This document shows positions 23,306 to 63,102 of a stretch of DNA of 64,000 nucleotides, piece after piece (the first letter of the stretch is position 1; every line of letters starts with the position of its first letter). Position numbers and translations under genes: made by a program. This stretch comes from an uncultured Elusimicrobia bacterium (lineage in GTDB: Bacteria > Elusimicrobiota > Elusimicrobia > FEN-1173): the NCBI GenBank assembly GCA_964484135.1, contig CAZAEL010000001.1, positions 64 through 64,063 on the forward strand. The letters run 5' to 3'. The notes beneath the pieces are model-generated. The model did not search any database, was not told the DNA's origin, and worked only from the letters and a program-made list of their open reading frames with translations.

Positions 23306-23306
23306 C

Positions 23307-23340: not shown

Positions 23341-23429
23341 CGGTTGCTTCCCCGTTCCGCAAGTGTTAGAAACGTTGTGTCACGGCCGTTCAAGGGACCG
23401 GAAACCTTTCGTGAAAGGAGACGGTGGCT

Positions 23430-25379
<1,950 letters not shown>

Positions 25380-27936: not shown

Positions 27937-29010
27937 ATGAAAGACAAGGAAAAACAACCGGCAAGAACGGATCCGCGCGGCGGCGCCGACGCGCTGTCCG
28001 ACCAGGCCGTCCTGGAGGAGGGCCGCCGCGTTCTGTCCATGGAGGCCCGGGCCCTGGAGGAGATGGGCGCGCGGTTGAACCATGATTTCTGCCGGGCGGT
28101 CCGGGCCGTGGCCGCCTGCCAGGGCAAGGTGGTGCTCACGGGCGTGGGCAAGTCCGGTTTCGTGGCCCGCAAGATCGCCAGCACCCTGTCCAGCCTGGGG
28201 CGGCCCTCCTTTTTCGTCCACCCCACGGAAGGCGTGCACGGGGACCTGGGCATGCTGCGGTCCGACGACCTTTTGATCAGCGTGTCCCAGAGCGGGAGCA
28301 CCAACGAATTGGTCTCTTTTCTCACCGTGGCCAAGACGCGCTTCAACGTGCCCGTCATCGCCATCGTGGGCGAGAACGGCGGGAACTTGGAGCGGTGGGC
28401 GGACATCGTTCTGGCCACCGGCGCGGTGGAGGAGGCCTGCGCCCTGGGTTTGGCGCCCACCACCTCCAGCACCGCGGCCCTGGCCCTGGGCGACGCCCTG
28501 GCCGTGGCGGTCAGCCGCCTCATGGGGCTGGAGGCCAAGGACTTCGCGGCCCTGCACCCGGCCGGCGCCTTGGGCCACCGCTTGTACGCGCCCGTGGAAA
28601 AGCTCATGCGGCGGGAGTTCCCGCGTGTGGACGCCGGCCGGACCCTGCGGGAGATCTCGCCCCTCATCACCCAGGGCGGCATCGGCCTGGCCGTGGTGGA
28701 GGACAAGGAGACGGGCCGCCTGGGCGTGGTCACGGACGGCGACATCCGCCGGGCCGTGCAAAAGGGGCCGGCGGGCCTGGACCAGAAGGCCCGGGACGTC
28801 ATGTCCGCCTCGCCCAAATCCGTGGGCCTCAAGACCCTGGGCATGGACGCCCTCATGGAAATGGAGCGGTCCCGTATCACCTCCCTGGTGGTGCTGGACG
28901 AGCAGGGGCGGCTGGCCGGCGTCCTGCATATCCACGACATTCTGCGGTATGGGCTGGACCTGGTCTCGCCCGCGTATAGGAAGGGGAATCTGCGGGACGT
29001 GCTGCCTTAG
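27937..29010 (+). CDS. kpsF: Sugar-phosphate isomerase, KpsF/GutQ (KdsD) family: SIS domain plus two CBS domains
   Basis: The SIS motif (VLTGVGKSGFVARKIASTLSS...SQSGST) is followed by tandem CBS domains. Confidence 0.8.
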   Translation: MKDKEKQPARTDPRGGADALSDQAVLEEGRRVLSMEARALEEMGARLNHDFCRAVRAVAACQGKVVLTGVGKSGFVARKIASTLSSLGRPSFFVHPTEGVHGDLGMLRSDDLLISVSQSGSTNELVSFLTVAKTRFNVPVIAIVGENGGNLERWADIVLATGAVEEACALGLAPTTSSTAALALGDALAVAVSRLMGLEAKDFAALHPAGALGHRLYAPVEKLMRREFPRVDAGRTLREISPLITQGGIGLAVVEDKETGRLGVVTDGDIRRAVQKGPAGLDQKARDVMSASPKSVGLKTLGMDALMEMERSRITSLVVLDEQGRLAGVLHIHDILRYGLDLVSPAYRKGNLRDVLP

Positions 29011-46949: not shown

Positions 46950-48929
46950 GTGGCCGACAAGGCATCCCTCCTGATCTTTGACCGGGACGGCGGGTCGGAC
47001 GCCGGGGTTTTTCCCGGCGCCGCCGACCTTTTCCCGTTGACCGGGGATTGGCGCCTGACGCGGCGGGTCCGGGACCGACGGGCCGGCGCGGTCCGGGAGG
47101 TCCTGGATTCGGCCCGCCTGGTGGAGGAGGAGGTGGACCGGGTGCGGGAGACGGTGGGCGGCTGGTCCGCGGAACTGGGCAACCTTCGGGCCGGGGGCAA
47201 GACCCTGAAGGAATGGTTCCTGACGCCGGACCGGGGCGTCAGCGCCTGGTGGTTTTCCCTGCTGTCGGAGAAAAACCCCCTGAAGACGGACGTCTTCTTG
47301 AAGCTCGCGCAACTGAGGGTCCTGGAAAAACTTTTCCAATCCGGGCGCTACGGATCCTGCGCCGGCGCGGTGGGCGATCCGGTTTTCCGCGCGGCGGTGT
47401 CTCGGTTGGCCCGGCGGGCCGGCGTGGGGTATCGCCTGCGGGCCGCGCGCCATCCCGGTTTTTCCTGGCGCGGCGCCCTGCGGGGCGGCCTGGAACGGGC
47501 CGGCCTTATCGGGGACCTGGTCCACGCCCTGCTCAAGCTGGCGGAATGGGTCTGGCTTGCGGCCCTGGCCCGCGGCCTGGGGCCGAAAGGCGCGGGCGCG
47601 GAAGGCGGGGAGGACTTGCTGGTGGTCACCTATTTCCCGGCCGTGGACCGAGAAGCCGCGGAACAGGGGCGGTTCCAGGACCTTTATTTCGGCCCCTTGC
47701 AGGAGCTCTGGCAAAAAGAGGGGCGGCGCGCCCATTGGATCCTCCTGTACGTGCCCTTTGACCGCCGGGCCTTCGTGGACGCCCTGGCCCTGGCCAAGCG
47801 TTTCTCCGTCAACGGCTGGAGCGTGACTTTCCTGCACCGGTTCCTGTCCGCCGGCATTTTGGCGCGGACGCTGTTGACGTGGGGCATCCAGGTTTTGAAC
47901 TATCTTAGGGTGCGGAGCGCCCTGGACCGGGCCTTCGCGGAGCCGGCCCTGGCCCCGCCGGAGGGCCGCGAGCTGTTGGCGCGCCTGGGACGGCGGTCCT
48001 TCGCGGGATGGGTGGGTTTGAGCGGCCTCCTGTACTTCGAGCTGTTCAAGGAGGTTTTCCGGCGTTTTCCCAAGGCGTCCCGTTGCCTGTACGTGGCGGA
48101 GATGCACGCCTGGGAAAAGGCGCTGAACGGGGCCAAGCGGTCGCGCCGGCCCGGCGTCGTCACCGTGGGGTTCCAGCACGCGGCCGTGTCTCGGAATGAG
48201 TTCCACTATTTCCACGCGCCGGAGGAGGCCCGGTCCGCGGGCGGCCCCCTGGACGCGCCGTTGCCGGACCGGCTGGCCTGCAACGGCGAAGTCCCCCGGT
48301 CGCTCCTGGCCCGGCAGGGGTACGCGGGTGTTCGGTCGGTGGAGGCGTTGCGCCACCTGGGCCTGGCGCGCGCGCTCAAAGGAGACGATTCGACGAAACG
48401 TCGTCCGCCCGTGGTGGTGGCGGCGGGGTCCATCGACCGGCGGGAGACCTTGGCGTTGTTGTCGCTGGTGACGGAGGCGCTGCCCCGGCCCGCCGGTTTC
48501 CAGGTCTGGCTCAAGGGGCATCCGTCCATGCCCGTCCAGCCCCTGCTGGCCGAGCTGGGGATCCCCTGGCCCGCCGCCGGTTTTGAGGTCCGCGACGAGC
48601 CCGTGGACCGGCTCCTGGCCGAGGCCCGGGCCGCGGTGGTGGGCGGCAGCAGCGTGGCCCTGGACGCCCTGGCCCTGGGATGCCGCGTGATCGTGCCCGT
48701 GTTTCCCGACGGGATTTCCGTCAATCCCTTGGGCGGGTTCGAGGACGCGTACCGCAAGGTGAGCACCCCCGCGGCCCTGAAAGAAGCGGTGGAGGAGGCC
48801 CTGGCCCGGCCCCCGGCGCCGGAGGAGATTCGGCGCGGCCGCGAACTGGCGGCTTCCTATTGGAACTTGGATGAATCCCTGCCCCTGTGGCGGGAGCTGA
48901 TGGGCCTTGCGCCCGCGGGAACGAGGTGA
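46950..48929 (+). CDS. Large hypothetical surface-carbohydrate biosynthesis protein (GT-B-like C-terminal half)
   Basis: The 659 aa product has no clear catalytic motif. Confidence 0.45.
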   Translation: MADKASLLIFDRDGGSDAGVFPGAADLFPLTGDWRLTRRVRDRRAGAVREVLDSARLVEEEVDRVRETVGGWSAELGNLRAGGKTLKEWFLTPDRGVSAWWFSLLSEKNPLKTDVFLKLAQLRVLEKLFQSGRYGSCAGAVGDPVFRAAVSRLARRAGVGYRLRAARHPGFSWRGALRGGLERAGLIGDLVHALLKLAEWVWLAALARGLGPKGAGAEGGEDLLVVTYFPAVDREAAEQGRFQDLYFGPLQELWQKEGRRAHWILLYVPFDRRAFVDALALAKRFSVNGWSVTFLHRFLSAGILARTLLTWGIQVLNYLRVRSALDRAFAEPALAPPEGRELLARLGRRSFAGWVGLSGLLYFELFKEVFRRFPKASRCLYVAEMHAWEKALNGAKRSRRPGVVTVGFQHAAVSRNEFHYFHAPEEARSAGGPLDAPLPDRLACNGEVPRSLLARQGYAGVRSVEALRHLGLARALKGDDSTKRRPPVVVAAGSIDRRETLALLSLVTEALPRPAGFQVWLKGHPSMPVQPLLAELGIPWPAAGFEVRDEPVDRLLAEARAAVVGGSSVALDALALGCRVIVPVFPDGISVNPLGGFEDAYRKVSTPAALKEAVEEALARPPAPEEIRRGRELAASYWNLDESLPLWRELMGLAPAGTR

Positions 48930-48931
48930 CC

Positions 48932-49864
48932 ATGGAACCGAAGACGAAATCAGAGGACAAGGCGGGCGCCGCAGGCGCGGCCCCGGCCTGCCAGATCTGC
49001 GGCAACCGCGACCCGAAGGCCTTCTCCTTCGTCACGGACAAGTTCCGGTACGAGGTCAAAAAATCCGCGTACAAGTGCGACGCCTGCGGCCTGGTGTTCA
49101 TCCTGCCCCTGATGAGCCCGGAGGAGGAGCGGATCTTCTACGAGCAGGAGTACGGCGTCATCTACAGCCAGGAAAAGGGGACCACGCCCAAGGATTTGTT
49201 CGAGAAGCGCCTGCCGGACGCCCGGCGGTACCTGAGCATGACGGAACGTTATCTCTCCGGGGACAACGACTGCCTGGAGATCGGCTGCGCGTCGGGGTAC
49301 TTCCTGCACACCATCCGCGACCGGGTGCGTTCCGTGGCCGGATACGAGACCCACGTGGAGCTGAAGAAATACTGCGAGGGCATCGGCATCCCCATCCTGC
49401 CCAGCCTGGAGGCCGCGGGCGAGGGCCGCTTCGACCGCATCTTCCTCTTCTTCGTGCTGGAGCATTTGGGGGACCCGCTGGGGTACCTGGCGCTCTTGAA
49501 GCGCATGCTGAGGCCGGGCGGCATCCTCTTCATCGAAGTGCCCAACGTGGACGACGCCCTGCTGTCCCTGTACCAGATCCCGGCGCTGAAGGACTTCTAC
49601 TTCACGCCCGCGCACCAGTTCTACTATTCCAAGGACACGCTGGGGCGGCTCCTGCGCAAGGCCGGCTTTGCCGATTTCGAGATCGAGCCGGAGCAGCGCT
49701 ACGACCTGTCGAACCACATGCATTGGATGCTGGCGGGCAAACCCGGCGGCCAGGGCAAGTACAGCCATGTGTTCACGCCCAAGCTCCTGGAGGCGTACGC
49801 CGAATGCCTCCGGGAGAAGTTCCTCTGCGACACGCTCTTTGCCGTCGTGAAAAAGGACAAATAG
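48932..49864 (+). CDS. Class I SAM methyltransferase with N-terminal Cys4 zinc ribbon (paralog of 30287..31276)
   Basis: The product has CQICGN...CDACG, LEIGCASGYF and FLFFVLEHLGDP motifs, giving the same architecture as the 30287 gene. Confidence 0.75.
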   Translation: MEPKTKSEDKAGAAGAAPACQICGNRDPKAFSFVTDKFRYEVKKSAYKCDACGLVFILPLMSPEEERIFYEQEYGVIYSQEKGTTPKDLFEKRLPDARRYLSMTERYLSGDNDCLEIGCASGYFLHTIRDRVRSVAGYETHVELKKYCEGIGIPILPSLEAAGEGRFDRIFLFFVLEHLGDPLGYLALLKRMLRPGGILFIEVPNVDDALLSLYQIPALKDFYFTPAHQFYYSKDTLGRLLRKAGFADFEIEPEQRYDLSNHMHWMLAGKPGGQGKYSHVFTPKLLEAYAECLREKFLCDTLFAVVKKDK

Positions 49865-50893: not shown

Positions 50894-51946
50894 ATGGTGA
50901 AACCGCGCAAGGAACTGCTGAGAATATCCCGCACCCCCCTCGCGGAGTACGAGGGCCGTCCCGGCCTGCGCCTGGACAAGAACGAGAACCTGGCGCCGGA
51001 CCCGGCCCTGGTGCGGGAGGTGCTGGCCCGCACCCCGGCGCAATCCCTGGCGGATTACCCGGACTACGGCGCCTTCCTCAAGGTCCTGGCGCGGTGGATG
51101 CGTTGCCGGCCCGAGAACCTGCTCCTCACCGCCGGGTCCGACGGCGCCATCAAGCTGGTCTTTGAGGCGTACCTGGAGCCGGGCGACGAGTTCGTGACGC
51201 TGTCGCCCTCCTTCGCCATGTTCACGGTGTACGGCAAGCTCTTCGGCGGCCGGGCCGTGGAAGTCCCCTTCCACCGGGACCTGTCCGCGCCGCTGGAGCG
51301 GCTGCTCTCCGCCATCGGGCCCCGCACCAAGATCGTGGCCCTGGCCAGCCCCAACAACCCCACCGGCACCATGCTGGCGGAGGCGGATTTCCTGAAAGTT
51401 TTCCGGCGGGCCGCGCGCTTCGGCGCCCTGGTCCTGGTGGACGAGGCGTACTATTTCTTCACGCGCCGGACCATGCGGCCCCATGTTTTGCAGCACGACA
51501 ACGTGGTCCTGACCCGCACCTTTTCCAAGGCCTGCGGCCTGGCGTCCCTGCGCCTGGGCTTCGCCCTGGCCCGGCCCGAGCTCATCCGGGATTTAAGGAA
51601 GTGCCAGCCCATTTTCGACGTGAACGGCCTGGCGTTGCGCTGCGCGGAGCACGTGATCCGGCACGAGGGCCGGATCTGGCGGTACGCCGCCGAGGTGGAG
51701 AAGGGCAAGGCGTATCTGGAAAGGGTCCTGCCGGGCCTGGGCCTGGGGCTGGCGCGGGGGCACGGCAACTTCGTGCTCATCGACCTGAAGCGAAATCCGG
51801 AAGCCGTGGCGCGCCGCCTGCGGAAGCGGGGCGTGGCCGTGGGTTATGGTTATCCACATCCCGGCCTGGCCACCTGCCTCAAGGTGACTGTGGGGCCGGA
51901 AAAGGTGATGCGGTCATTTGTCCGCTTGCTGAGGGAGTGCCTGTGA
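50894..51946 (+). CDS. Class I/II PLP aminotransferase (HisC/CobD-like)
   Basis: The product has LDKNENLA and TFSKACGLASLRLG motifs. Confidence 0.8.
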   Translation: MVKPRKELLRISRTPLAEYEGRPGLRLDKNENLAPDPALVREVLARTPAQSLADYPDYGAFLKVLARWMRCRPENLLLTAGSDGAIKLVFEAYLEPGDEFVTLSPSFAMFTVYGKLFGGRAVEVPFHRDLSAPLERLLSAIGPRTKIVALASPNNPTGTMLAEADFLKVFRRAARFGALVLVDEAYYFFTRRTMRPHVLQHDNVVLTRTFSKACGLASLRLGFALARPELIRDLRKCQPIFDVNGLALRCAEHVIRHEGRIWRYAAEVEKGKAYLERVLPGLGLGLARGHGNFVLIDLKRNPEAVARRLRKRGVAVGYGYPHPGLATCLKVTVGPEKVMRSFVRLLRECL

Positions 51947-52893
51947 AAACCAAAAACGTCCTGGTGACGGGCGGGGCCGGGTTCATCGGCGGCCACCTGG
52001 CGCGACGTTGCCTGGCCGAGGGCCACCGCGTCTGGGTGGCGGACGATTTGTCCACGGGCCGGAAAGGCAACGTGCCGGGCGGCGCCAGGTTCCTGAAGCT
52101 GGACCTGGGGCAACAGGGGTTTTCCAAAAGGCTCCCGGGCGTCAAATTCGACGCGGTCCTGCATCTGGCGGCCCAGTCCTCCGGGGAAATCTCCGGCGAG
52201 GACCCGGCGCAAGATTTCCGGGTGAACCTGGCCGGGACCGTGGAGCTCCTCTCCTGGGCGTCGCGGAACGCCAAGCGGTTCCTGTACGCCAGCTCCATGG
52301 CCGCGTACGGCGACCCGCCCTCCCTGCCCGTGTCCGAGGACGCGCCCCTGGCGCCGCTGTCCGTGTACGGGCTCAACAAAAGCGTGTCCGAGGAGTACGT
52401 GCGCCGTTATAACCGCGCCGGCTTTGCCACCACGTCCTTCCGCATGTTCAGCGTGTACGGGCCCGGCCAGAACATGGCCAATTTGAAGCAGGGCATGATC
52501 AGCATCTACATGGCGTACGCGCTCCAAAAAAGACCGGTCCTGGTGAAAGGGTCCCTGGACCGGTTCCGCGACTTCGTGTACATCGACGACGCGGTGGACG
52601 CCTGGATGGCGGCCCTCGGGAGCCCGGCGGCGGGCGGCCGGGTGTACAACGTGGGGTCCGGACAAAGGACCACGGTGCGGGAGGCGGTGCGGGAGATCCT
52701 CAAGGCCCTGGGCGAGGACCCGGACCGATATCCCGTGGCCTCCGGCGCCCCCACGCCCGCGGACCAGTTCGGCGTGGTGGCGGACATCACCCGCATCCGG
52801 TCGGAGCTGGGCTGGCAACCCAAGATCGGTTTGTCCGAGGGGCTCCGCCGCATGGCGGACTGGGCCAGGAGCGCGGGGAAGGCCGGCCGATGA
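51943..52893 (+). CDS. NAD-dependent epimerase/dehydratase (extended SDR)
   Basis: The product has VTGGAGFIGGHL and a YxxxK motif. A GTG start overlaps the upstream stop. Confidence 0.8.
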   Translation: MKTKNVLVTGGAGFIGGHLARRCLAEGHRVWVADDLSTGRKGNVPGGARFLKLDLGQQGFSKRLPGVKFDAVLHLAAQSSGEISGEDPAQDFRVNLAGTVELLSWASRNAKRFLYASSMAAYGDPPSLPVSEDAPLAPLSVYGLNKSVSEEYVRRYNRAGFATTSFRMFSVYGPGQNMANLKQGMISIYMAYALQKRPVLVKGSLDRFRDFVYIDDAVDAWMAALGSPAAGGRVYNVGSGQRTTVREAVREILKALGEDPDRYPVASGAPTPADQFGVVADITRIRSELGWQPKIGLSEGLRRMADWARSAGKAGR

Positions 52894-53633
52894 CGGCGGC
52901 GGACGCCCAGCTCAAATCCGAACAGGCGGCCTGGGCCACGGAGGCCTGCCGCGACTACTACCGCGCCCATCGCCGGACGCCGGCGGATTTGTACCCGTCG
53001 GAACGGTTCTTCCTGCCCGAGGTCCTCGGCCGGGTCTCCACCTGCCTGGACGTGGGCTGCGCCCTGGGGCATTTTTCCCGCATCATGAAAAGTTTCAACC
53101 CGGCGCTGCAATACACGGGCATGGACGCGAACCCGGCTTTTGTCGCGGCGGCGCAGAGGGAACACCCGGATTCCCGGTTCCTGACGGGGAACGGCATGGA
53201 TTTCCGCACGCCGCCCGGCTCCTACGACCTGGTGCACCTGAGCGGCGTCCTGCACCTGACCTCCTTTTACCGGGAGATCACCGCGGCCTGCTACGCCCAG
53301 GCCCGGACGTACCTGCTCTGCGATTTCCGCCTGACGCGGGGCCCTTCCGTGACGGGACGCCTGAAGCCCCATGTCAGCGCCGACGACCCGGGGACGCCGG
53401 AGCTGCCCTACGTGGTGCTGAACGCGGAGGAATGGCTGGCCTGGCTGAAACGTCTTTCCCCGGCGCCGCGCTCCATCCGGGCCCGGGGCTATCCCCACCC
53501 GCCCTCGCCGGGGGCGCGGTTGAGCCTGAAGGACATCATCGCCGCCTTTTTTCTGATTGAAAAGGGGCCGGCCCGCGGCGAGACCGCGGTGGATGTGGAT
53601 TTCAATGCGTTGCCGAAGGAGACGGAATCATGA
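52890..53633 (+). CDS. Class I SAM-dependent methyltransferase
   Basis: The product has LDVGCALGHF and DLVHLSGVLH motifs. Confidence 0.65.
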   Translation: MTAADAQLKSEQAAWATEACRDYYRAHRRTPADLYPSERFFLPEVLGRVSTCLDVGCALGHFSRIMKSFNPALQYTGMDANPAFVAAAQREHPDSRFLTGNGMDFRTPPGSYDLVHLSGVLHLTSFYREITAACYAQARTYLLCDFRLTRGPSVTGRLKPHVSADDPGTPELPYVVLNAEEWLAWLKRLSPAPRSIRARGYPHPPSPGARLSLKDIIAAFFLIEKGPARGETAVDVDFNALPKETES

Positions 53634-55465
53634 CCATCTGCGCGCTCATGCTGGGCCGGGAGGGAAGCACCGGGTTTCCGGGCAAGAACACGTACCCGGT
53701 GCTGGGGCGGCCCCTCATGGCGTATCCTCTCCTGGCGGCCAAACACGCGCCCTCCGTGGCCGAGGTGTACGTGTCCACGGATTCGCCGCGCATCCAGGCC
53801 GTGGCCCAGGAGATGGGCGCCCGGACCATCGACCGGCCGCCGGAGCTGGCCACCAAGACCGCTTTGGGCGAGGACGCGTACGTGCACGGTTACGGCGTGA
53901 TCCGGGACCGGCTCAAGGCCCGGGGCGAGTCGCTGGAGCTGTTGGTGCTGCTGTTCTGCAACGCGCCCACGGTCACGGCCGCCCAGATCGAGGAGGCGGT
54001 CCGGGCGCTGCGGGACCACCCGGAGTACGACTCCGCGGTCACGGTGTCCCGGTACAACATGTGGAGCCCTTTGCGGGCCCGCCGCGTGGGGCCGGACGGC
54101 CTCCTCCATCCCTTCGTGCCCTTTGAGACCTTCGGCGACCCCGCCACCCTCAACTGCGACCGGGACTCCCAGGGCGACGTTTGGTTCGCGGACATGGGCC
54201 TGTCCGTGGTGCGGCCCCGTTGCCTGGAAAACCTGCGCGACGGCCTCCTGCCCCAGAAGTGGATGGGCCGGAAGATTTGGCCGATCCGGCAGGAGGGCGG
54301 GCTGGACGTGGATTACGACTGGCAGTTGCCCGCGGCGGAGGAGTGGCTGAGACGCCGCGGTTTTACGGAGGACGCCACCCCCTACGACCGGGCCGGGGCC
54401 GGCGCAAGAGGGGCGGGCGGGGACTGGCCCAGGCCCGCCTTCCGCACGCCGCCGGAGAAGCGCGTGCTGGTGACCACCGCGCCCTTCGGCGACCAGGACC
54501 CGAAACCCCTGGAGCTTTTGAAGGCCGCGGGCGCGGAGTTCGTGGTGAACCCCCTGGGCCGCCGCCTCACCGAAGAGGAGCTGGCCAAGGCGGCGGGGGA
54601 CTTCGGCGTGATCATCGCCGGGACGGAGCCCATCACACACCGGGTCATGGCCGCGGCCCCGCACCTGCGCCTCATCTCCCGGGTGGGCGTGGGCCTGGAC
54701 AGCGTGGATTTGAAGGCGGCGAAAGAACGGGGCATCCGGGTGTCGTACACGCCCGAGGCGCCGGCCCCGGCCGTGGCCGAACTGGCCGTGGGGCTCATGC
54801 TGGACCTGCTGCGGCACATCACCGAGGCGGACCGGTCCCTGCGGCGCGGAACCTGGCAACGGTTCCCCGGGCGGCGCCTGTCCGATTGCGCGGTGGGGAT
54901 CCTCGGCGCGGGACGCATCGGCCGGCGCGTGGCCGAGCATTTGGCCGGGGGCTTCCCCGGCGTCAAGCTTTTGGCCAACGACATCAAGCCCGACGAGTCC
55001 TTCGGCCGCAAACTGGGTCTGCGGTGGGTGGACAAGGAGACGCTGTACAAAGAGGCGGACGTGATCTCCCTGCATGTGCCTCTTACGCCTCAAACACGCG
55101 GACTGATCAACGCCCGGGCCCTGTCTTTGATGCGGCCCGGGGCGCTCCTCGTGAACACGGCCCGGGGCGGCATCGTGGACGAGGCGGCCCTGGCCGACGC
55201 GCTCCGCTCCCGTCGTCTGGCCGGCGCGGCCATGGACGTTTTCGACAAGGAGCCCTATGCCGGCGAGCTGGCCGGACTGGGCCGGTGCCTGCTCACCTGC
55301 CACATGGGCTCCATGGCCCAAGACTGCCGCGCCCGCATGGAGATCGAGGCCACGGAGGAGGCGGTGCGGTTTTTGAGGGGAGAGCCTTTGCGGACGTTGG
55401 TCCCCGAGGAAGAATACGCTTTGGCGGGAGAAAACGCCCGTATCTTGAAAGGAGAAAAGTCATGA
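53630..55465 (+). CDS. Bifunctional fusion: N-terminal acylneuraminate-type cytidylyltransferase plus C-terminal D-isomer-specific 2-hydroxyacid dehydrogenase
   Basis: The N-terminal domain (MLGREGSTGFPGKN) is joined by a linker to a 2-hydroxyacid dehydrogenase domain (GILGAGRIGRRVAE...VNTARGGIVDE) in one 611 aa ORF. Confidence 0.8.
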   Translation: MTICALMLGREGSTGFPGKNTYPVLGRPLMAYPLLAAKHAPSVAEVYVSTDSPRIQAVAQEMGARTIDRPPELATKTALGEDAYVHGYGVIRDRLKARGESLELLVLLFCNAPTVTAAQIEEAVRALRDHPEYDSAVTVSRYNMWSPLRARRVGPDGLLHPFVPFETFGDPATLNCDRDSQGDVWFADMGLSVVRPRCLENLRDGLLPQKWMGRKIWPIRQEGGLDVDYDWQLPAAEEWLRRRGFTEDATPYDRAGAGARGAGGDWPRPAFRTPPEKRVLVTTAPFGDQDPKPLELLKAAGAEFVVNPLGRRLTEEELAKAAGDFGVIIAGTEPITHRVMAAAPHLRLISRVGVGLDSVDLKAAKERGIRVSYTPEAPAPAVAELAVGLMLDLLRHITEADRSLRRGTWQRFPGRRLSDCAVGILGAGRIGRRVAEHLAGGFPGVKLLANDIKPDESFGRKLGLRWVDKETLYKEADVISLHVPLTPQTRGLINARALSLMRPGALLVNTARGGIVDEAALADALRSRRLAGAAMDVFDKEPYAGELAGLGRCLLTCHMGSMAQDCRARMEIEATEEAVRFLRGEPLRTLVPEEEYALAGENARILKGEKS

Positions 55466-56355
55466 AAGTCGTCGTGTTCGGCGGTTCCGGATTTTTGGGA
55501 AGCCACGTGGCCGACGCCCTGACCGAGGCGGGCCACAGCGTCACCATCTACGACCTGCGGCCTTCTCCCTATTTGCGGAAGGGGCAGGACATGGTCGTCG
55601 GCGACATCCTGGACGCCCCCGCGGTGCGCCGCGTGATGAAGGGCCGGGACGCGGCGTACAACTTCGCGGGGTTCGCGGACATCGAGGCGGCCCGCACCCA
55701 GCCCCTGGAGACCATCCGCCTGAACATCCTGGGGAACGGCGTCCTGCTGGAGGAGGCCGCCCGCGCCAGGCTCAAGCGGTTCATCTTCGCCAGCACGGTG
55801 TACGTGTACAGCGAGGCCGGCTCCTTCTACCGCGCCTCGAAGCAGGCCTGCGAGGCGTACATCGAGAGCTACCGGCAGGTCTACGGCCTGCCCTACACCA
55901 TCCTGCGCTTCGGGTCCTTGTACGGCCCCCGGGCGGACGAGCGGAACGGCATCTTCACCTTCCTGAAGAACGCGGTGGAGAAGAAGAAGATCGTGTATTG
56001 GGGCACGGGGGAGGAAATCCGGGAGTACGTCCACGTCAAGGACGCGGCCCTCTGCAGCGTGGACGTCCTGGACAAGTCCTTCCAGGACGCCTGCGTGATC
56101 GTCACCGGCAACCAGCCCATGAAGGTGCGGGACCTTTTGACCATGATCCGGGAGGTCCTGCGCGGCCAGGTGGAGGTCCGGTACAAGCCCGGGTCCCGGC
56201 CCGCGGTGGGGGACCTCCATTACGCGATCACGCCCTATTCCTTCGTGCCCAAGGAGGGCAAGAAACTGGTCCGCACCCATTACACGGACCTGGGCCAGGG
56301 CCTGCTCACGGTCTTGGCGGAGATCCACGCGGCGCAGGGGAGCCGGAGGGGCTGA
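55462..56355 (+). CDS. NAD-dependent epimerase/dehydratase (SDR)
   Basis: The product has VFGGSGFLGSHV and YRASK motifs. The ATG at 55462 follows AAAGGAGAAAAG. Confidence 0.85.
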   Translation: MKVVVFGGSGFLGSHVADALTEAGHSVTIYDLRPSPYLRKGQDMVVGDILDAPAVRRVMKGRDAAYNFAGFADIEAARTQPLETIRLNILGNGVLLEEAARARLKRFIFASTVYVYSEAGSFYRASKQACEAYIESYRQVYGLPYTILRFGSLYGPRADERNGIFTFLKNAVEKKKIVYWGTGEEIREYVHVKDAALCSVDVLDKSFQDACVIVTGNQPMKVRDLLTMIREVLRGQVEVRYKPGSRPAVGDLHYAITPYSFVPKEGKKLVRTHYTDLGQGLLTVLAEIHAAQGSRRG

Positions 56356-56357
56356 CC

Positions 56358-57023
56358 ATCCGTCCCGCAAGGCCGTTACGGGCCATTTTCTTCGATTTCG
56401 ACGGGGTGATCCTGGAGTCCGCGGACATCAAGACCCGGGCGTACCGGGACCTCTTCGCCCCGTACCCGCGCTGGCGCGACCGCCTGGTGGCGTACCACCT
56501 GCGGCACGCGGGCGTATCGCGGTACGAAAAGTTCAAGTATTTTTACCGGCGCTTCCTGCGCCGCCCCCTGACTCCGACGGAACGCCGGCGCTTGGACCGG
56601 GCCTATTCCCGCCTGGTGTGGGACCGGGTCCTGGCCTGCCCCTTCGTGCCGGGGGCCCGGCGTTTCCTGGCCCTGGCCGCTCGGCGATGGCCTCTCTTCA
56701 TTCTGTCCGGCACCCCACAGAAAGAACTGCGCCGGGTGGTACGCCGACGGACGCTGGCGTCCCGGTTCCGGGGCGTGTACGGCTCTCCCCGCCTCAAACC
56801 GCGGCTCCTCAAAACGCTTCTTAAGCGGCACAAACTCTCCCCGCAAGAGACGTTGTACGTGGGAGACGCCCGTTCCGATTGGAAGGCGGCGCGGGCCTGC
56901 GACGTTCCCTTTGTGGGGCGGGTCCCGGCGGGCCGGGTTTCGCCCTTTCCCCGCAACGTGCCTCGCGTGAGGGACCTGTCGGGCCTGGAAAAATTCCTGA
57001 GGCGGGGCGGGTTCCTCCCGTGA
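56358..57023 (+). CDS. HAD-superfamily phosphatase (KdsC/NeuNAc-9-P phosphatase-like), non-canonical start
   Basis: The product has the FDFDGV motif and VGDARSDW. No ATG, GTG or TTG lies between the upstream stop and the motif. Confidence 0.6.
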   Translation: MRPARPLRAIFFDFDGVILESADIKTRAYRDLFAPYPRWRDRLVAYHLRHAGVSRYEKFKYFYRRFLRRPLTPTERRRLDRAYSRLVWDRVLACPFVPGARRFLALAARRWPLFILSGTPQKELRRVVRRRTLASRFRGVYGSPRLKPRLLKTLLKRHKLSPQETLYVGDARSDWKAARACDVPFVGRVPAGRVSPFPRNVPRVRDLSGLEKFLRRGGFLP

Positions 57024-58840
57024 GACGGCTCAACCCCTATCGTTGCCGGGAGGCCCCGTTCTATGTGCGGTGGCTTTTGCGCGAGGGAAAAGGGATCGCG
57101 GGACTGAGCCGCGCCGCCGCCTGGTTTTTCAAGCGGTTTCGGCCCGTCCGTTCTTTACCGCCCTATCTGTCCGAGGGGGAAACGGCCTGGCGGCCGGGCC
57201 GGGCCCGGCATCAGCCGCCGGCGGAGGAATGTTTCGGGGAGGTGCGGCGTCTTTCGGCCGAGGGGCGCCGGCCGTCCGCCGTGGAGATTTCCCTGGCGAC
57301 GCGCTCTCTGCGCATGACGTCCCCTTTTCGGTGGGACGCGGACGGCGCCGACGCGGAGGACGTCTTGGCCCTGCACCGGTTCGGCTGGGTGTTCCCGGCG
57401 TTGCGGCAAAATCCCACCCAAGGCTGCGCCCTGTTCTTTTGGGACCGGGTCTTGGAATGGATCGGGGCCGCGCCCTCCCGTCCGGGGTCCGCGGCCTGGG
57501 AGCCCTATTCCATGTCGGAACGGGCCGTGAACTGGTTGCTGCTGGTTTGCCTCCTCAAAAGATCCGGGGCCGGCGGTCTGCCCGAGGAGCCCCGCGTGCG
57601 CCAGAGCCTGGAGCGGCACGGCCAGGAGCTCCTGGCCCGCCTGGAATATTACGGGGAAAAAGACAGGACCAACAACCACCTCATCAACAACGGCCGCGCC
57701 TTGTACGTGCTGGGCGCGTTTTTCGGCGACGGCCGTTGGCAGGAGGCGGGCCGCCGCATCCTGAAAGAGGAGGCTTCCCGGAGTTTTACGCCCGGGGGGG
57801 TCCTTCGGGAAGGCTCGGTCCACTATCATTTCTTGCTGCTGCGGACCTATTCGGAAATGGAACGGGCGGCCCGGGCCGCGGGCGACGGGCCTTTCGCGGA
57901 ATGGACCGGGGCCTTCGCGGCCCGCCTCCGGGAGGCGGCCCGGTTTTTCCTGGGCGGGCCGGACGCGCCCCTGCCCCTCCTGGGGGACCTGTCGCCGGAC
58001 GCCCCGCCGGAGTGGCTCCGGAGCGCGGCGGGCGGCGCGCCGGACGGGTGGGCCTGGCTCTGGGGCGACGCGGGGAAGAAGGAGGATTTTCCGCAGGCGT
58101 CCCCCGGATTTCAGGACCGCCGGGCGGACGGCTGGGCCCGGTACGACGCCCCCGCGTACCGCGTGTTCTGGCGGCTGCCTCCGGAGGGCCGCGCGCCCGG
58201 CCATTTCCACGCCCACCACGACGCCGGCGCCTTCGAACTCCACGCGGGCGGGCGGCCCGCGCTGGTGGACGGCGGACGCTCCACGTACGAGCCCGACCCC
58301 TTCGGGCTCTACGGCAAGAGCGCCCGCTCCCACAACAGCTGCCTGGTGGACGGATGCGAGCCCTTCGTGTCCGACGGGTTGAACGGCGGCCCCCACCTCC
58401 TGCCGGAGTACGGCCGGGGGGGGATGGAGACGGACTGGGAGCCTTCGGCCCAGGGAGGCCTTTTGACCCTGCGGCACGACGGTTTCTCGCGCCTGCCCGG
58501 CGCGGGAGGGTACCGGCGTTCTTTCCGATTGGAGCGGAATCACATTCTCCTGGAGGACCGGTTCGAAGGCCGGGGCGTCCACCGGGTGGAGACCTTTTTC
58601 CACGCGCCGCCGGGGGAGGATGTGAGGCGGGAGGGCGGCGCCTTCGTGGCGGGGCCCGTTCGGTTGATCCCGGAAGAAACGTCCCTCGGGGGAGAGGTGT
58701 TGAAGGGCGGATGGCTGGGGGCCTATCCCGCGGGCTGGCACGCTTCACGGTACGGCCGGCGCGTCCCCAGCCCCGTCATCCGGTTTTTCCGGCGCGCGGC
58801 CTTCCCCCTGGCCAACCGCTTCCGGATCGAGGTCGTTTGA
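57020..58840 (+). CDS. Heparinase II/III-like family protein
   Basis: The product has EPYSMSERAVNW, NNHLINNGRAL and GSVHYHFLL motifs. A GTG start overlaps the HAD stop. Confidence 0.65.
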   Translation: MRRLNPYRCREAPFYVRWLLREGKGIAGLSRAAAWFFKRFRPVRSLPPYLSEGETAWRPGRARHQPPAEECFGEVRRLSAEGRRPSAVEISLATRSLRMTSPFRWDADGADAEDVLALHRFGWVFPALRQNPTQGCALFFWDRVLEWIGAAPSRPGSAAWEPYSMSERAVNWLLLVCLLKRSGAGGLPEEPRVRQSLERHGQELLARLEYYGEKDRTNNHLINNGRALYVLGAFFGDGRWQEAGRRILKEEASRSFTPGGVLREGSVHYHFLLLRTYSEMERAARAAGDGPFAEWTGAFAARLREAARFFLGGPDAPLPLLGDLSPDAPPEWLRSAAGGAPDGWAWLWGDAGKKEDFPQASPGFQDRRADGWARYDAPAYRVFWRLPPEGRAPGHFHAHHDAGAFELHAGGRPALVDGGRSTYEPDPFGLYGKSARSHNSCLVDGCEPFVSDGLNGGPHLLPEYGRGGMETDWEPSAQGGLLTLRHDGFSRLPGAGGYRRSFRLERNHILLEDRFEGRGVHRVETFFHAPPGEDVRREGGAFVAGPVRLIPEETSLGGEVLKGGWLGAYPAGWHASRYGRRVPSPVIRFFRRAAFPLANRFRIEVV

Positions 58841-58843
58841 CCC

Positions 58844-60718: not shown

Positions 60719-61944
60719 AACGGGTCCTGTTCCTCACCTATTATTTTCCGCCCGCGTCCGGGGCCGGGTCCCAGCGGGCGCGGAAGCTGGTCAAGTACCT
60801 GCCGCGGGCCGGGTGGACGCCCGTCGTGGCGGCGGGCCATGATCCCTTCCTGCCGGAGGACCAGAGCCTGCTGGAAGACGTGAAGGACGCGGAGGTCATG
60901 CGCGTGCGGCCGGGCCTTTTGCCGCGGGCCCTGCTGGGGTCCCGCGTCCCGCGCCTGGCCCTGAACCGCCTGCTGGTCCCGGACGTCCAGGCCGCCTGGC
61001 TCGCGTCCCTGCGCCGGGCCACGGACGCGCTCCTGTCTTCCTCCCGGATCGATCTGGTGTTCACCTCCTGCGGCCCCTTCAGCCTGAACGCGGAGGGCGC
61101 GCGGCTCAAGCGACGCCGCCGCGTGCCCTGGGTCACGGATTTCCGGGACGCCTGGACCCTGGGCGCGGCCTTCCGCCCCCTGACGCCGCTCCACGGCTGG
61201 CTGGAACGACGCATGGAAGCCCGGGCCTGCGATGAGTGCGACCACTTCATCGCCAACACCCCGGCCTTTTTGGCGGAGCAGAAAAAAAAGTTTCCTGTGA
61301 TTGCGTCCAAAAGTTCCTGCCTGCCCAACGGGTACGACCCGGCGGACTTTCCCGACGAGGCGCCGTCCGGCCTCCCGCCGGGAGACCGGCCCTGGAAATT
61401 GACGTACGCCGGCTCCTGGTACAGGCGTCTTTATCCCGACGACCTTTTTCGCGTCCTGGCGGATTTCCGGCAAGAGCGCGGCGCGCCTTTGGAGGTCCAT
61501 TACGCGGGGCCCCATTCCCGGCCCTTCGGGGAACGGGTCCGGGCCCTGGGCCTCGGGGACTGTCTGAAGGACCACGGGTCCCTGGGATACAGGGAATCCC
61601 TGCGCCTGATACAGGAATCGGATTTGCTCCTCCTGACCCTGCCGCGGGACGGGCGGGCCGGGTACTGGGTGCCGGCCAAACTCTACGAATACCTGGCCTC
61701 GGGCAAGCCGGTGCTGGCCCTGTGCCCGCCGGGGGACGTGCCTTCCCTGGTACAGGGGCAGGGCCGAGTGGTGACGGCTTCGGGCGCGGAGGCGCTGTCC
61801 CGGGGGCGGCAGGCCCTGTCGGAATTGTGGGACGCCTGGCGCGGCGGCCGGACGGTGGAGCGGTCCCCGGCGCTGGCCGGTCATGAGTACCCGGCCCTGG
61901 CCGCCCGCCTCGCCGGGATCTTCGACCGGGTGGTTCGAGGATGA
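60715..61944 (+). CDS. Glycosyltransferase family 4-like (GT-B)
   Basis: The product has an EX7E-like region (VPAKLYEYLASGKPVLAL). Confidence 0.7.
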   Translation: MKRVLFLTYYFPPASGAGSQRARKLVKYLPRAGWTPVVAAGHDPFLPEDQSLLEDVKDAEVMRVRPGLLPRALLGSRVPRLALNRLLVPDVQAAWLASLRRATDALLSSSRIDLVFTSCGPFSLNAEGARLKRRRRVPWVTDFRDAWTLGAAFRPLTPLHGWLERRMEARACDECDHFIANTPAFLAEQKKKFPVIASKSSCLPNGYDPADFPDEAPSGLPPGDRPWKLTYAGSWYRRLYPDDLFRVLADFRQERGAPLEVHYAGPHSRPFGERVRALGLGDCLKDHGSLGYRESLRLIQESDLLLLTLPRDGRAGYWVPAKLYEYLASGKPVLALCPPGDVPSLVQGQGRVVTASGAEALSRGRQALSELWDAWRGGRTVERSPALAGHEYPALAARLAGIFDRVVRG

Positions 61945-63083: not shown

Positions 63084-63102
63084 AAGGGATTTCCTGAAAA
63101 AC

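Follow-up and report, generated by a model that had tools for sequence, protein, structure and literature searches.

A cytidylyltransferase–D-2-hydroxyacid dehydrogenase fusion points to a conserved surface-sugar cassette that may make a modified CMP-activated ulosonic acid

Why would a bacterium join a CMP-sugar-acid synthetase to a D-2-hydroxyacid dehydrogenase in one polypeptide? The question is raised by an open reading frame in a 64,000-nucleotide stretch of DNA (here called the window) from an uncultured Elusimicrobia bacterium (GCA_964484135.1, contig CAZAEL010000001.1). An earlier note on this DNA described a single 611-residue protein and suggested that it channels a redox step immediately before or after CMP activation. 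We found the ORF exactly as described, with Pfam matches in both halves. Its features and those of neighboring genes are collected in Table 1.

Table 1. Features of the fusion ORF and of its neighborhood, in window coordinates
Feature	Coordinates	Strand	Remarks
Whole fusion ORF: A-type cytidylyltransferase (A), linker, D-2-hydroxyacid dehydrogenase (DH)	53630..55465	+	611 aa, ATG start
A-type CTP_transf_3 cytidylyltransferase domain, aa 1-254	53630..54391	+	stand-alone homologues, PDB, NCBIfam matches
P-loop L-G-R10-E-G-S13-T-G-F-P-G-K19-N20, predicted CTP triphosphate-binding motif	53651..53689	+	120 A-type sequences
D226-V-D228 (DxD), presumed Mg2+ site of CMP-ulosonate synthetases	54305..54313	+	invariant in A-type and B-type domains
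Last N-domain helix, aa 233-252, LPAAEEWLRRRGFTEDATPY, B-type-like	54326..54385	+	identity to A versus B sets
Gly/Ala/Arg-rich interdomain linker, aa 255-277, predicted disordered	54392..54460	+	AF2 pLDDT; substituted, frame kept, in P0241
GGAG-N6-GTG (V280), Shine-Dalgarno-like, possible internal start ahead of DH	54457..54469	+	read from sequence
D-isomer-specific 2-hydroxyacid dehydrogenase domain, aa 278-611	54461..55462	+	Pfam, PDB, Foldseek
A330-G-T-E-P334 loop in place of 3-PGDH V-R-S-x-T substrate loop	54617..54631	+	alignment to human PHGDH 6plf
NAD-binding G426-A-G428-R-I-G431 through D451	54905..54982	+	invariant columns
Catalytic R512, E541, H558	55163..55303	+	invariant; align with PHGDH R236/E265/H283
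SDR2, GalE-like extended SDR epimerase/reductase, 297 aa	55462..56355	+	ATGA overlap with fusion, translationally coupled
HAD-IA type sugar-phosphate phosphatase	56352..57023	+	start uncertain; external gene call starts 56406
SAM methyltransferase, 247 aa	52890..53633	+	stop overlaps fusion start (ATGA); recurs as family f36 upstream of A
SDR1, GalE/heptose-epimerase-like extended SDR	51943..52893	+
HisC/CobD-like class I/II aminotransferase	50894..51946	+	TIGR01141 237.9 bits, under 276.55 cutoff
SAM methyltransferase MT325	48887..49864	+	recurs as a partner, in a pair with SDR1
TIGR04326 (O_ant_LIC13510) surface-carbohydrate biosynthesis protein	46950..48929	+	265.4 bits, over 250 cutoff
Second CTP_transf_3 cytidylyltransferase, adjoins NeuB	44315..45037	+	unrelated; 25% identical to A domain
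NeuB-family ulosonic acid synthase	43267..44310	+	PF03102 246 bits; TIGR03569 277.8 bits, under cutoff
Cj1295-like protein	39730-41055
KpsF/GutQ arabinose-5-phosphate isomerase	27937..29010	+	TIGR00393 255.6 bits, over 203.7 cutoff

The fusion ORF and both of its domains are real. The worry that a frameshift or a lost stop codon had falsely merged two neighboring genes could draw on two loci (L033 and L043) where A and DH are adjacent separate genes, and on the GGAG-N6-GTG that closes the linker; this putative internal start may be the true start of DH, or a coincidence. We nevertheless regard such a merger as extremely improbable. Inspection of the sequence showed that the junction runs in frame 0 without a stop codon, and linker GC3 is continuous, at 0.88-0.97 in this frame versus 0.4-0.75 in the others. 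The fusion is not an assembly artifact, because a 94%-identical copy of 611 aa lies in the same gene order on a contig of a different, independent MAG (GCA_964519745.1); its linker carries substitutions and keeps the frame. The same fusion is present in the separate Logan assembly of SRR8109493. A second A-DH fusion that arose independently (P0002/P0242; 599 aa, 60% identical) was found in another organism, where the genes downstream are the same. Both gene boundaries of the window's fusion carry a ribosome-binding site and ATGA translational coupling. In an AF2 model (mean pLDDT 81.4, pTM 0.50), two confident domains flank a disordered linker (aa 254-264, pLDDT below 50), in agreement with the Gly/Ala/Arg linker described earlier. 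Confident interdomain packing was not found in this model, which lends the channeled step no structural support.

The N-terminal domain matched CTP_transf_3 (PF02348) across aa 6-77 only, at 44.7 bits against a cutoff of 22.6. Its best PDB relatives by phmmer were CMP-NeuAc synthetases (6ifd, 8e-14; 1qwj, 2e-9), as expected from the NeuAc/Kdo-synthetase-like domain first proposed. It is 66-77% identical to stand-alone proteins of about 250 aa that end at TPYD. Such proteins are the usual form of a very large, strongly conserved family (hereafter A), whose thousands of members span bacteria and some archaea. Profile and motifs assign the domain to the CMP-ulosonic acid synthetase superfamily (NeuA/KdsB/PseF/LegF). 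The best NCBIfam match of the domain, to PseF (TIGR03584), was 62.1 bits against 205.7, and KdsB subfamilies scored 29-43 bits against cutoffs of 193-255; the stand-alone A protein P0129 also fell below the PseF cutoff (70.4 versus 205.7 bits), as did the family below the curated NeuA cutoff. As A proteins score below every curated equivalog cutoff, it is from fold and motifs that we infer an ulosonic acid as its probable substrate. Among 120 A-type sequences, the P-loop residues R10, S13, K19, and N20 were invariant or nearly so, and R69-P-P-E-L (an R-P-x-x-L motif) was invariant. The window's domain keeps every invariant residue of the family: R10, S13, K19, N20, R27, R69, N111, R149, R151, D177-R-D179, Q181, R195, D226, D228, and Q232. 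The roles of the P-loop, R-P-x-x-L, and DxD residues, including Mg2+ binding by D226-V-D228, we take to be those known from NeuA and KdsB. With its active site intact, the domain looks catalytically competent.

The C-terminal half matched 2-Hacid_dh (PF00389, 87.9 bits against 24.6) and 2-Hacid_dh_C (PF02826, 180.4 bits against 25.1), which together span aa 290-591. In the PDB it matched 1wwk (E=2e-59), and Foldseek returned 1wwk, phosphite dehydrogenase, and GRHPR, with TMt values of 0.7-0.8 to 2-HADH structures. The GxGxxG glycines (G426/G428/G431), D451, R512, E541, and H558 were invariant among 25 aligned homologues, which bears out the complete dehydrogenase claimed earlier. By these matches DH belongs to the D-isomer-specific 2-hydroxyacid dehydrogenases and, with its NAD site and Arg/Glu/His triad intact, looks catalytically competent. 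Enzymes of this family act on a carbonyl beside a carboxylate.

The closest relatives of DH in sequence and structure are SerA/PHGDH enzymes of the type III short form (P. horikoshii 1wwk); the two share the NAD site and the triad, R75 and R135' have conserved equivalents, and 3-PGDHs remain the most similar proteins by score. However, DH lacks the marks of a 3-phosphoglycerate dehydrogenase (SerA). It fell far under the equivalog cutoffs (TIGR01327, 225.5 versus 454; PRK11790, 155.7 versus 404). The V-R-S-x-T substrate loop, whose role (human R54) we take from the PHGDH structural literature, is replaced by the A-G-T-E-P loop, invariant across the DH family. Moreover, DH was found in glycan-biosynthesis operons, not serine biosynthesis, in 83 of 83 loci examined. 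Databases routinely misname it "phosphoglycerate dehydrogenase."

A search for orthologous fusions revealed CTP_transf_3–2-Hacid_dh proteins of about 590 aa in hundreds of genomes, labeled "D-3-phosphoglycerate dehydrogenase" or "NAD(P)-dependent oxidoreductase." In 118 of 119 fusions, however, the N-terminal domain is a paralogous B type with a partly degenerate P-loop, about 40% identical to A (median, 40%). The A-DH form is rare; A is fused to DH in two lineages only, which are polyphyletic and of independent origin. In the B type, the P-loop is acidified (G12 is E or D in 111 of 118, and S13 becomes D or N), about 40% have Q or H in place of R10, R149/R151 are lost (Y/L at 149/151), and residues 177-179 are deleted. 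The window's fusion is collinear with the B-type fusions over its full length (97-100% coverage; orthologous DH halves, 58-68% identical) and has in common with them the downstream SDR2-HAD pair, the linker region, and the final helix of the N-domain. B-type fusions co-occur with a separate A or KdsB-like enzyme, whereas the N-terminal domain in the window is the A enzyme itself: aa 1-225 are A type, with all A invariants present and an identity of 0.73 to the A set versus 0.35 to the B set. In the helix at aa 233-252, the values are 0.46 and 0.70, respectively, and a putative recombination joint, DVDYDWQ, lies just upstream. Most likely the protein is a recombinant: an ancestral B-DH fusion would have exchanged its degenerate B core for an active A core, a picture that depends on a segment of only 20 residues. 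The fusion as such is found in hundreds of genomes, and the window's A-DH is a rare, rearranged version of it.

These relatives bear on whether the N-terminal domain is an enzyme at all. It could instead be a non-catalytic module that binds a nucleotide or CMP-sugar and presents substrate to DH or regulates it, possibly like the B type, with CMP activation left to the stand-alone NeuB-linked enzyme alone. The degenerate catalytic positions of B-type domains, the presence of another cytidylyltransferase in 25 of 26 B-DH loci, and the apparent swap of B for A in the window would all fit. We consider this very unlikely, as the window's domain is A type, has all catalytic motifs intact, and is 77% identical to stand-alone enzymes; the window holds no other A-type copy, so this protein must supply A's own function.

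NeuB, KpsF, DegT, and a LegB-like SDR place the ORF in an ulosonic/nonulosonic acid glycan cluster; the window also encodes an AsnB amidotransferase and many methyltransferases. The KpsF/GutQ isomerase is predicted to supply a phosphorylated sugar precursor. SDR2 resembles GalE-type epimerases (4zrm, 1e-27), and the HAD protein resembles a phosphorylated-carbohydrate phosphatase. Since NeuB has a separate cytidylyltransferase beside it, the acid sugar that the fusion activates is probably a second or modified one.

We surveyed the gene neighborhood of DH in the 83 loci. It was accompanied by SDR2 in 58, by HAD in 46, and by A in 40, and genes for PseG, DegT, and NTP-transferases recurred. A and the set of HpcH aldolase plus KdsB-like enzyme excluded each other (no locus had both; p~1e-12). 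The KdsB-like enzyme of the HpcH-type loci is a bona fide member of the KdsB subfamily (NF009905, 293.8 against 255), and this exclusivity suggests that A fills the same role. An aminotransferase was present in 22 loci and associated with the A type (18 of 40; p=9e-5). Cultured carriers of the cassette include Denitromonas halophila SFB-3, Phormidium sp. CCY1219, and Neosynechococcus sphagnicola. A cytidylyltransferase, PGDH-like DH, GalE-like SDR, and HAD sugar-phosphatase thus form a conserved cassette, widespread in bacterial surface-sugar clusters.

Some features of the survey run counter to the pathway proposed below. In HpcH-type loci, the aldolase could give a 2-keto acid directly, which makes the role of DH there less plain. 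NeuB lay within 10 kb in 28 loci and was missing within that distance in about two thirds. A 6-phosphogluconolactonase (TIGR01198, 137.1 against 124.45) adjoined DH in just 8 of 83 loci and does not abut DH in the window; where present, it is a hint of a phospho-aldonate.

The earlier note held that no such fusion had been characterized. Our literature search indeed found no paper describing this domain pair, but an analogous protein, EpaA of Acinetobacter baumannii prophages, has been characterized genetically: a CTP_transf_3 domain joined to an aldo-keto reductase, it works with the SDR EpaB to convert Pse5Ac7Ac to 8-epi-Pse5Ac7Ac (PMC12053666). By architecture it is the closest characterized analogue, with an N-terminal CTP_transf_3 domain, a C-terminal NAD(P)-dependent oxidoreductase, a separate SDR, and a nonulosonic acid glycan setting. 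However, the window's C-terminal half is 2-Hacid_dh with no AKR match in Pfam, the SDR partner is GalE-like and extended rather than a classical adh_short, the EpaA system has no HAD phosphatase, the cytidylyltransferase subfamily differs, and orthology is not detectable.

By this analogy, the cassette would epimerize a finished nonulosonic acid (Leg, Pse, or Kdo from the NeuB pathway): the GalE-like SDR would oxidize a secondary alcohol at C4, C7, or C8, DH would reduce the ketone with the opposite stereochemistry, and A would (re)activate the epimer with CMP. Similar pairs in Vibrio and Moritella Pse clusters (PMC7371886) agree with such a role, as do the window's own NeuB with its separate cytidylyltransferase and the EpaB/AciE-class adh_short SDR beside A in 21 of 40 loci. 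It nonetheless seems unlikely to us, for D-2-hydroxyacid dehydrogenases act on a carbonyl beside a carboxylate, and neither R512, the catalytic Arg that binds the carboxylate, nor the other Arg residues vary. We know of no member of the family that reduces a remote sugar ketone. The HAD phosphatase and 6-phosphogluconolactonase would be left without a role, and tblastn found no adh_short homologue in the window. Keto-reduction of a 4-, 7-, or 8-oxo group, as once suggested, is therefore a regiochemistry not to be expected of DH.

Alternatively, DH could make a small C3/C5 acid for an acyl or amide substituent, either from 3-phosphoglycerate via 3-phosphohydroxypyruvate to phosphoserine or serine (with the HisC-like aminotransferase and HAD) or as hydroxypyruvate/glycerate for an N-glyceroyl group; fusion to A would then reflect operon adjacency only. 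PGDHs as top-scoring family (TIGR01327, 1wwk), the parallel of DH, aminotransferase, and HAD to SerA-SerC-SerB logic, the cluster's Cj1295-like protein, methyltransferases, and AsnB, and a glycerate kinase downstream in locus L088 speak for it. The Cj1295-like family is tied to di-O-methylglyceroyl-Pse (PMC3068675), but such genes are rare in the other loci. We judge this improbable given the PGDH score and loop, partners that are constantly SDR and HAD rather than the aminotransferase, and fusion to CTP_transf_3-fold domains on at least three independent occasions, hard to reconcile with adjacency alone. The glycerate-type substituent envisaged earlier loses ground on the same points, the tightest partners being a GalE-like SDR and a sugar-phosphate phosphatase.

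The repeated independent fusion of DH to CTP_transf_3-fold domains speaks for functional coupling to CMP activation and is a strong "Rosetta-stone" argument that both enzymes act on the same molecule. Bcs1/TarIJ bifunctional CDP-ribitol synthase and NeuA-O-acetylesterase fusions likewise combine a cytidylyltransferase with an enzyme that handles that same activated sugar or polyol in a neighboring step, although their cytidylyltransferases are of other folds or subfamilies (IspD-like in Bcs1) and the partner is an SDR/MDR reductase or an SGNH esterase. In the KdsA-KdsC-KdsB route to CMP-Kdo and the NeuB/NANP/NeuA-type phosphorylated sialic acid routes, as proposed for the cassette, a dedicated phosphatase precedes a PF02348 cytidylyltransferase acting on the dephosphorylated ulosonic acid; the window shares with them an A5P isomerase of the KpsF/KdsD type and a synthase of the NeuB family, whereas its HAD is of the IA/C1-cap type, not KdsC-like. 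To our knowledge, no canonical pathway of this kind includes a 2-hydroxyacid dehydrogenase. Phosphorylated NulO routes with a dedicated phosphatase are described in Leptospira (PMC3438082).

Our proposal, which we rate at about an even chance, is that the ORF is a bifunctional enzyme in a cassette making a second, modified CMP-activated ulosonic acid. We infer the substrate, the order of steps, and the carbon oxidized or reduced as follows. DH would use NAD(H) for a redox step at C1-C2, the alpha-hydroxy/alpha-keto-acid end of an intermediate sugar acid that probably carries a phosphate; this step would form the 2-keto (ulosonic) function or act on it. Once HAD had taken off the terminal phosphate and the ulosonic acid had cyclized, A would transfer CMP from CTP to its anomeric 2-OH. 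The GalE-like SDR may epimerize an intermediate or the CMP-sugar, and the neighboring aminotransferase and methyltransferases may decorate it further. The glycosyltransferases of the cluster would thereby have a second acid sugar to draw on, modified and CMP-activated.

A bolder version, which we find doubtful, is that the cassette makes a new class of CMP-activated 2-ulosonic acids without aldol condensation. The starting point would be a phospho-aldonic acid such as 6-phosphogluconate, which the 6-phosphogluconolactonase next to DH in some operons could deliver. The PGDH-like DH would oxidize its C2, giving the phosphate of a 2-keto acid, which HAD would dephosphorylate and the A-type enzyme cytidylylate, so that DH, HAD, and A would be analogues of KdsA, KdsC, and KdsB; the GalE-like SDR, aminotransferase, radical-SAM enzyme, and methyltransferases would diversify the product. 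If so, the A family would define a new CMP-sugar-acid synthetase specificity, and each of the recurrent fusions would put the enzyme making the alpha-keto acid in one chain with the enzyme activating it.

Bacterial sialic-acid-like sugars influence phage susceptibility, immune recognition, and surface-layer properties, yet few of the enzymes that diversify them are known. The window's ORF points to a cassette of very broad phylogenetic distribution that could help account for unassigned CMP-linked metabolites detected by untargeted nucleotide-sugar metabolomics (SugarBase preprint), and its single A-DH polypeptide is a handy construct for testing the pathway.

The 611-aa ORF (53630..55465, + strand, ATG start) encodes two domains in one reading frame. 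Pfam matched CTP_transf_3 (PF02348) at aa 6 to 77 with 44.7 bits, and both halves of a 2-hydroxyacid dehydrogenase, PF00389 (87.9 bits) and PF02826 (180.4 bits), at aa 290 to 591. No in-frame stop was present at the domain junction. The G+C content of the window is 62 to 71%, and long shadow ORFs are common. In the annotated frame of the fusion, GC3 was 0.88 to 0.97 along the whole gene, including the linker, compared to 0.4 to 0.75 in the other frames. Two overlapping ORFs, 53489..55321 (- strand, 610 aa) and 54181..56355 (+ strand, 724 aa), were rejected as genes and are regarded as high-GC artefacts, because both have a low GC3 and the homologues in other loci are nothing but shadow ORFs of the dehydrogenase (DH) and of the downstream GalE-like extended SDR (SDR2). 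The start of the fusion reads GAAGGAGA-N7-ATGA and overlaps the stop of the upstream methyltransferase; its stop, AAAGGAGA-N6-ATGA, overlaps the start of the next gene. The fusion gene is therefore translationally coupled on both flanks. At the end of the linker (54457-54469), GGAG-N6-GTG forms a possible internal start that would also give a stand-alone dehydrogenase; this element could be a relic or a coincidence.

An NCBI assembly contains the identical fusion protein, as does an independent Logan assembly of SRR8109493. A different MAG (GCA_964519745.1) encodes a 611-aa homologue, P0241, which is 94% identical and lies in an unchanged gene order. Its linker differs from that of the window by several substitutions (DRAGAG-ARGAGGDW against DQPEAD-TRGAEGRW), and the frame is kept. 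A second fusion of the same architecture (P0002/P0242), from another sample, is 60% identical to that of the window and is followed by the same genes. The public gene call for P0002 (L087:10001) begins 19 codons late and loses the P-loop, which explains why Pfam did not record CTP_transf_3 for this protein; P0242 is the complete 599-aa NCBI version. We rejected an assembly artefact on the basis of the independent MAG copy, the separate Logan assembly, the continuous GC3, and this second fusion. The two-domain ORF described in an earlier note on this DNA is thus genuine, with its coordinates exact and both domains matched by Pfam.

The same note had stated that no such fusion has been characterised, and the view that none exist needs correcting. 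A whole-protein search of 5.8 billion proteins returned 659 matches at E<=1e-10, and the best 120 of these were all 563 to 624 aa long with a query coverage of 94 to 100%. Hundreds of full-length relatives therefore exist, although their two halves behave differently. When the halves were compared separately among these best 120 matches, the DH was 58 to 68% identical to that of the window, and the N-domain was 36 to 43% identical (median, 40%). The sole exception among those listed was P0002, at 63%; the other 118 of the 119 related fusions listed carry a paralogous N-domain, which we refer to as B. The search for orthologous fusions suggested in the note was consequently successful for the DH half, with the N-domain being mostly a paralogue.

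A search with the N-domain alone uncovered a very large family, with 5,904 matches at E<=1e-10. The best 120 were all stand-alone proteins of 247 to 273 aa that share 66 to 77% identity with the window; they span many phyla and include at least one archaeal sequence. In these 120 sequences of the family, which we call A, there is little or no variation at residues R10, S13, K19, N20, R27, R69, N111, R149, R151, D177, R178, Q181, D226, and D228, all of which the N-domain of the window also has. From this conservation, A looks like an active enzyme. The 118 B domains have an acidified P-loop, with E or D replacing G12 in 111 and D or N replacing S13 in 85. Q or H replaces R10 in 40, R replaces K19, and Y/L replace R149/R151; residues 177 to 179 (the D-R-D segment) are deleted, and R69, N111, R195, D226, D228, and Q232 are retained. 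Given the P-loop changes and the lost residues, B has the look of a cytidylyltransferase fold that has degenerated or been repurposed; it may be a pseudo-enzyme or a substrate-binding module joined to the dehydrogenase. A separate, intact cytidylyltransferase almost always neighbours the B-DH fusions. The other cytidylyltransferase of the window (44315-45037), which adjoins NeuB, is just 25% identical to A.

The A half of the window's fusion is nearest to stand-alone A proteins (77%) and not to P0242 (63%), and that of P0242 is nearest to the stand-alone A of another locus, L026 (70%). For the DH halves of the window and P0242, the nearest sequences are those of B-DH fusions (68% and 71%, respectively), compared to 60% identity between the two. 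By these comparisons, the two A-DH fusions are polyphyletic. In a sliding-window comparison, aa 1 to 225 of the window's fusion were A-like, with a mean identity of 0.73 to the A set versus 0.35 to the B set. The last helix of the N-domain, LPAAEEWLRRRGFTEDATPY (aa 233 to 252), was B-like (0.46 to A versus 0.70 to B; maximum, 0.90), and P0241 displayed the same pattern of A core and B helix. The motif DVDYDWQ is common to A and B. In many genomes, e.g., at L002 and L007, A lies directly upstream of a B-DH gene. From this short segment, we infer as the most economical reading a recombination at DVDYDWQ, by which an A core would have been swapped in for the B core of a neighbouring B-DH gene. 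The fusion might instead have arisen when neighbouring genes simply lost the stop codon that separated them, as A and DH are adjacent separate genes in L033 and L043. We disfavour this origin, and favour recombination, because the DH half most resembles that of B-DH fusions and the N-domain ends in a B-like helix.

In the DH half, the alignment revealed the invariants G426-x-G428-R-x-G431, D451, and R512/E541/H558; D451 is consistent with NAD, and not NADP, as the cofactor. Among solved structures, its nearest relatives comprise 3-phosphoglycerate dehydrogenases (1wwk, 2e-59; the Mycobacterium tuberculosis and human PHGDH, ~1e-46), glyoxylate/hydroxypyruvate reductases, and phosphite dehydrogenases. 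In PHGDH, R54 in the V-R-S-x-T loop is a substrate anchor. Compared to human PHGDH, the DH has a family-invariant A330-G-T-E-P334 in place of this loop and keeps the counterparts of R75, R135', R236, E265, and H283. Its score of 225 bits lies below the TIGR01327 cutoff of 454, and we rejected a bona fide 3-PGDH (SerA) on account of this score and the replaced loop. A rival idea is that the DH supplies a C3 acid or amino-acid substituent. The similarity to PGDH and a SerA/SerC/SerB-like trio of genes speak for it; given the negative outcome of the PGDH comparisons and the recurrence of the fusions, we consider it quite unlikely. R311, R351, R411, R416, R512, and R567 are invariant in the DH, and so many conserved arginines suggest an anionic substrate.

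We modelled the fusion with AlphaFold2 from a 25-sequence alignment (mean pLDDT, 81.4; pTM, 0.50; linker aa 254 to 264 below 50). Both domains were predicted as confidently folded, with their mutual orientation undefined. Since the pTM is 0.50 and the linker is disordered, the model gives no structural support to the channelled step that the earlier note had envisaged. Foldseek with the whole model found no two-domain homologue in the PDB and matched only the DH half (TMq <= 0.45).

The fusion lies in a co-directional glycan cluster that runs from ~25.9 kb to the end of the window. RNase E/G and acetyl-CoA synthetase genes (21779-25379) precede it and are probably its upstream boundary. The cluster begins with a DegT aminotransferase, a LegB-like SDR, a KpsF/GutQ isomerase, and several methyltransferases, of which the whole cluster contains at least seven. 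Next come a DmpG-type aldolase, a Cj1295-like M28/DUF4910 protein, a GT2, NeuB, and the NeuB-adjacent cytidylyltransferase, followed by the TIGR04326 protein, the methyltransferase MT325, a weakly GFO-like ORF, a HisC/CobD-like aminotransferase, SDR1, the methyltransferase MT247, and the fusion. SDR2, a sugar-phosphate phosphatase (HAD), a heparinase-II/III-like protein, AsnB, two GT4s, and FemAB complete it. In L088, alanine racemase and glycerate kinase come after the heparinase-to-FemAB block.

Features of the window and of related loci (window positions unless a locus is named)
Feature	Location	Details
KpsF/GutQ-family arabinose-5-phosphate isomerase	27937-29010	255.6 bits against a curated cutoff of 203.7
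DmpG-type 4-hydroxy-2-oxovalerate aldolase and arylformamidase-like cyclase	33967-35109, 37305-37970	Aldolase NF006049, 304.9 against a cutoff of 229
DUF4910/DUF2172/peptidase-M28-like protein with C-terminal HTH, Campylobacter jejuni Cj1295 family	39730-41055	
TIGR04326 (O_ant_LIC13510) surface carbohydrate biosynthesis protein	46950-48929	659 aa
Heparinase-II/III-like protein, AsnB-type amidotransferase, two GT4 glycosyltransferases, FemAB	57020-63999	Block kept in L087 and L088
6-Phosphogluconolactonase-DH loci	L058, L060, L066, L068, L070, L072, L073, L080	
Example B-DH fusion	L002:10001-11785	~590 aa; ~118 such proteins (P0003-P0120), outside the window

The sole ulosonic-acid synthase of this KpsF-bearing cluster is of the NeuB family, and KpsF alongside it therefore suggests an octulosonic (Kdo-like) product instead of, or besides, a nonulosonic one. 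Genetic evidence links C. jejuni Cj1295 to the modification of pseudaminic acid with di-O-methylglyceroyl (PMC3068675). We regard this glyceroyl lead as circumstantial, as a Cj1295-like gene is rare near DH and the papers involve no 2-hydroxyacid dehydrogenase. Relatives of the TIGR04326 protein (~620 to 670 aa) recur at the cassette end in other genomes, which makes this protein a candidate for transferring the activated acid sugar.

We compared 80 loci from species-representative genomes and several contigs, 83 loci with DH in all. ORFs were clustered independently of the window, and the recurrent families were then annotated; counts for one family (f16) were left out, as it combined a class-III aminotransferase with the cytidylyltransferase that adjoins NeuB in the window. 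GalE-type epimerases are the best PDB relatives of SDR2, which was present in 58 of the 83 DH loci. HAD, with a "phosphorylated carbohydrates phosphatase" as its best match in the PDB, was present in 46. A was found in 40, an HpcH/HpaI-type pyruvate aldolase in 30, and a KdsB-subfamily cytidylyltransferase (293.8 bits; cutoff, 255) in 29. NeuB, a radical-SAM/SPASM enzyme, and an adh_short SDR each occurred in 28, an FkbM methyltransferase in 27, and a HisC-like aminotransferase in 22. None of the 83 DH loci combined A with HpcH or the KdsB-like enzyme (p~1e-12). HpcH and the KdsB-like enzyme occurred together in 28 of 31 loci, and the radical-SAM enzyme, the aminotransferase, and the adh_short SDR tended to accompany A. 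This exclusivity indicates that the DH-SDR2-HAD core pairs with either of two cytidylyltransferase-supplying sets; it implies two alternative versions of one pathway and places A in the functional slot that a true KdsB-type CMP-ulosonate synthetase occupies. In addition, 25 of 26 B-DH loci contained A or the KdsB-like enzyme. The window's genes fit an Anaerolineales-type layout (GFO-like, SDR1, MT325, AT, MT247, A, DH, SDR2, HAD). 6-Phosphogluconolactonase, HpcH, the radical-SAM/SPASM enzyme, and adh_short are absent from the window. Its DmpG-type pyruvate aldolase parallels the HpcH of other loci; KpsF and the DmpG-like aldolase were rejected as cassette members, as neither recurs elsewhere.

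D-2-Hydroxyacid dehydrogenases convert alpha-hydroxy acids to alpha-keto acids and back, and PF02348 enzymes activate the hemiketal OH of an alpha-keto (2-ulosonic) acid. Both domains, apparently competent as cytidylyltransferase and NAD-dependent dehydrogenase, are therefore most simply read as recognising the C1-C2 end of a sugar acid. DH has been fused to CTP_transf_3-fold domains repeatedly and independently, the partners conserved around it are of a sugar type, and the two domains would act on the same pathway intermediate. In our model, DH would create or process a 2-keto function on a (probably phosphorylated) sugar acid, HAD would take off the phosphate, like KdsC and NANP, A would attach CMP, and the GalE-like SDR would epimerise. 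We give this general scheme about an even chance. In eight loci, a 6-phosphogluconolactonase gene (TIGR01198, 137.1 against a cutoff of 124.45) abuts or overlaps a stand-alone DH gene immediately upstream, which hints that a phospho-aldonic acid may be the substrate; the specific phospho-aldonate route is, in our judgement, unlikely.

The closest characterised system by design is that of Acinetobacter baumannii prophages, in which EpaA (CTP_transf_3 plus an aldo-keto reductase) and the SDR EpaB together turn Pse5Ac7Ac into its 8-epimer (PMC12053666). Genes for cytidylyltransferase-aldo-keto reductase proteins also occur in Vibrio/Moritella Pse clusters (PMC7371886). The analogy with EpaA (PMC12053666) makes it attractive to suppose that the window's fusion epimerises a finished nonulosonic acid, in keeping with the keto-reduction idea of the earlier note. 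We find this improbable, as it is awkward for the regiochemistry of a 2-hydroxyacid dehydrogenase and leaves the phosphatase without explanation. The coupling to CMP activation in that note is plausible; its regiochemistry, reduction of a 4-, 7-, or 8-oxo intermediate, needs correcting. The fusion shares its design with EpaA but differs in redox fold and partner type, and so is not an EpaA-family member. It belongs to the CTP_transf_3 and 2-hydroxyacid dehydrogenase superfamilies and to no curated equivalog, and the abundant, uncharacterised B-DH fusions are related yet distinct. Phosphorylated nonulosonic-acid routes with a dedicated phosphatase have a precedent in Leptospira (PMC3438082). 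In the literature searched, we found no description of a CTP_transf_3/2-Hacid_dh pair, or of a nonulosonic acid with a hydroxyacid or phosphoglycerate dehydrogenase, apart from a passing remark that a NeuB-family protein of Leptospira santarosai has a PGDH domain.

We view the fusion as a variant of the bifunctional cytidylyltransferase/oxidoreductase in acid-sugar biosynthesis, inside an uncharacterised and very widespread cassette. The fusion would gain in interest should the cassette make a new class of CMP-activated ulosonic acid.
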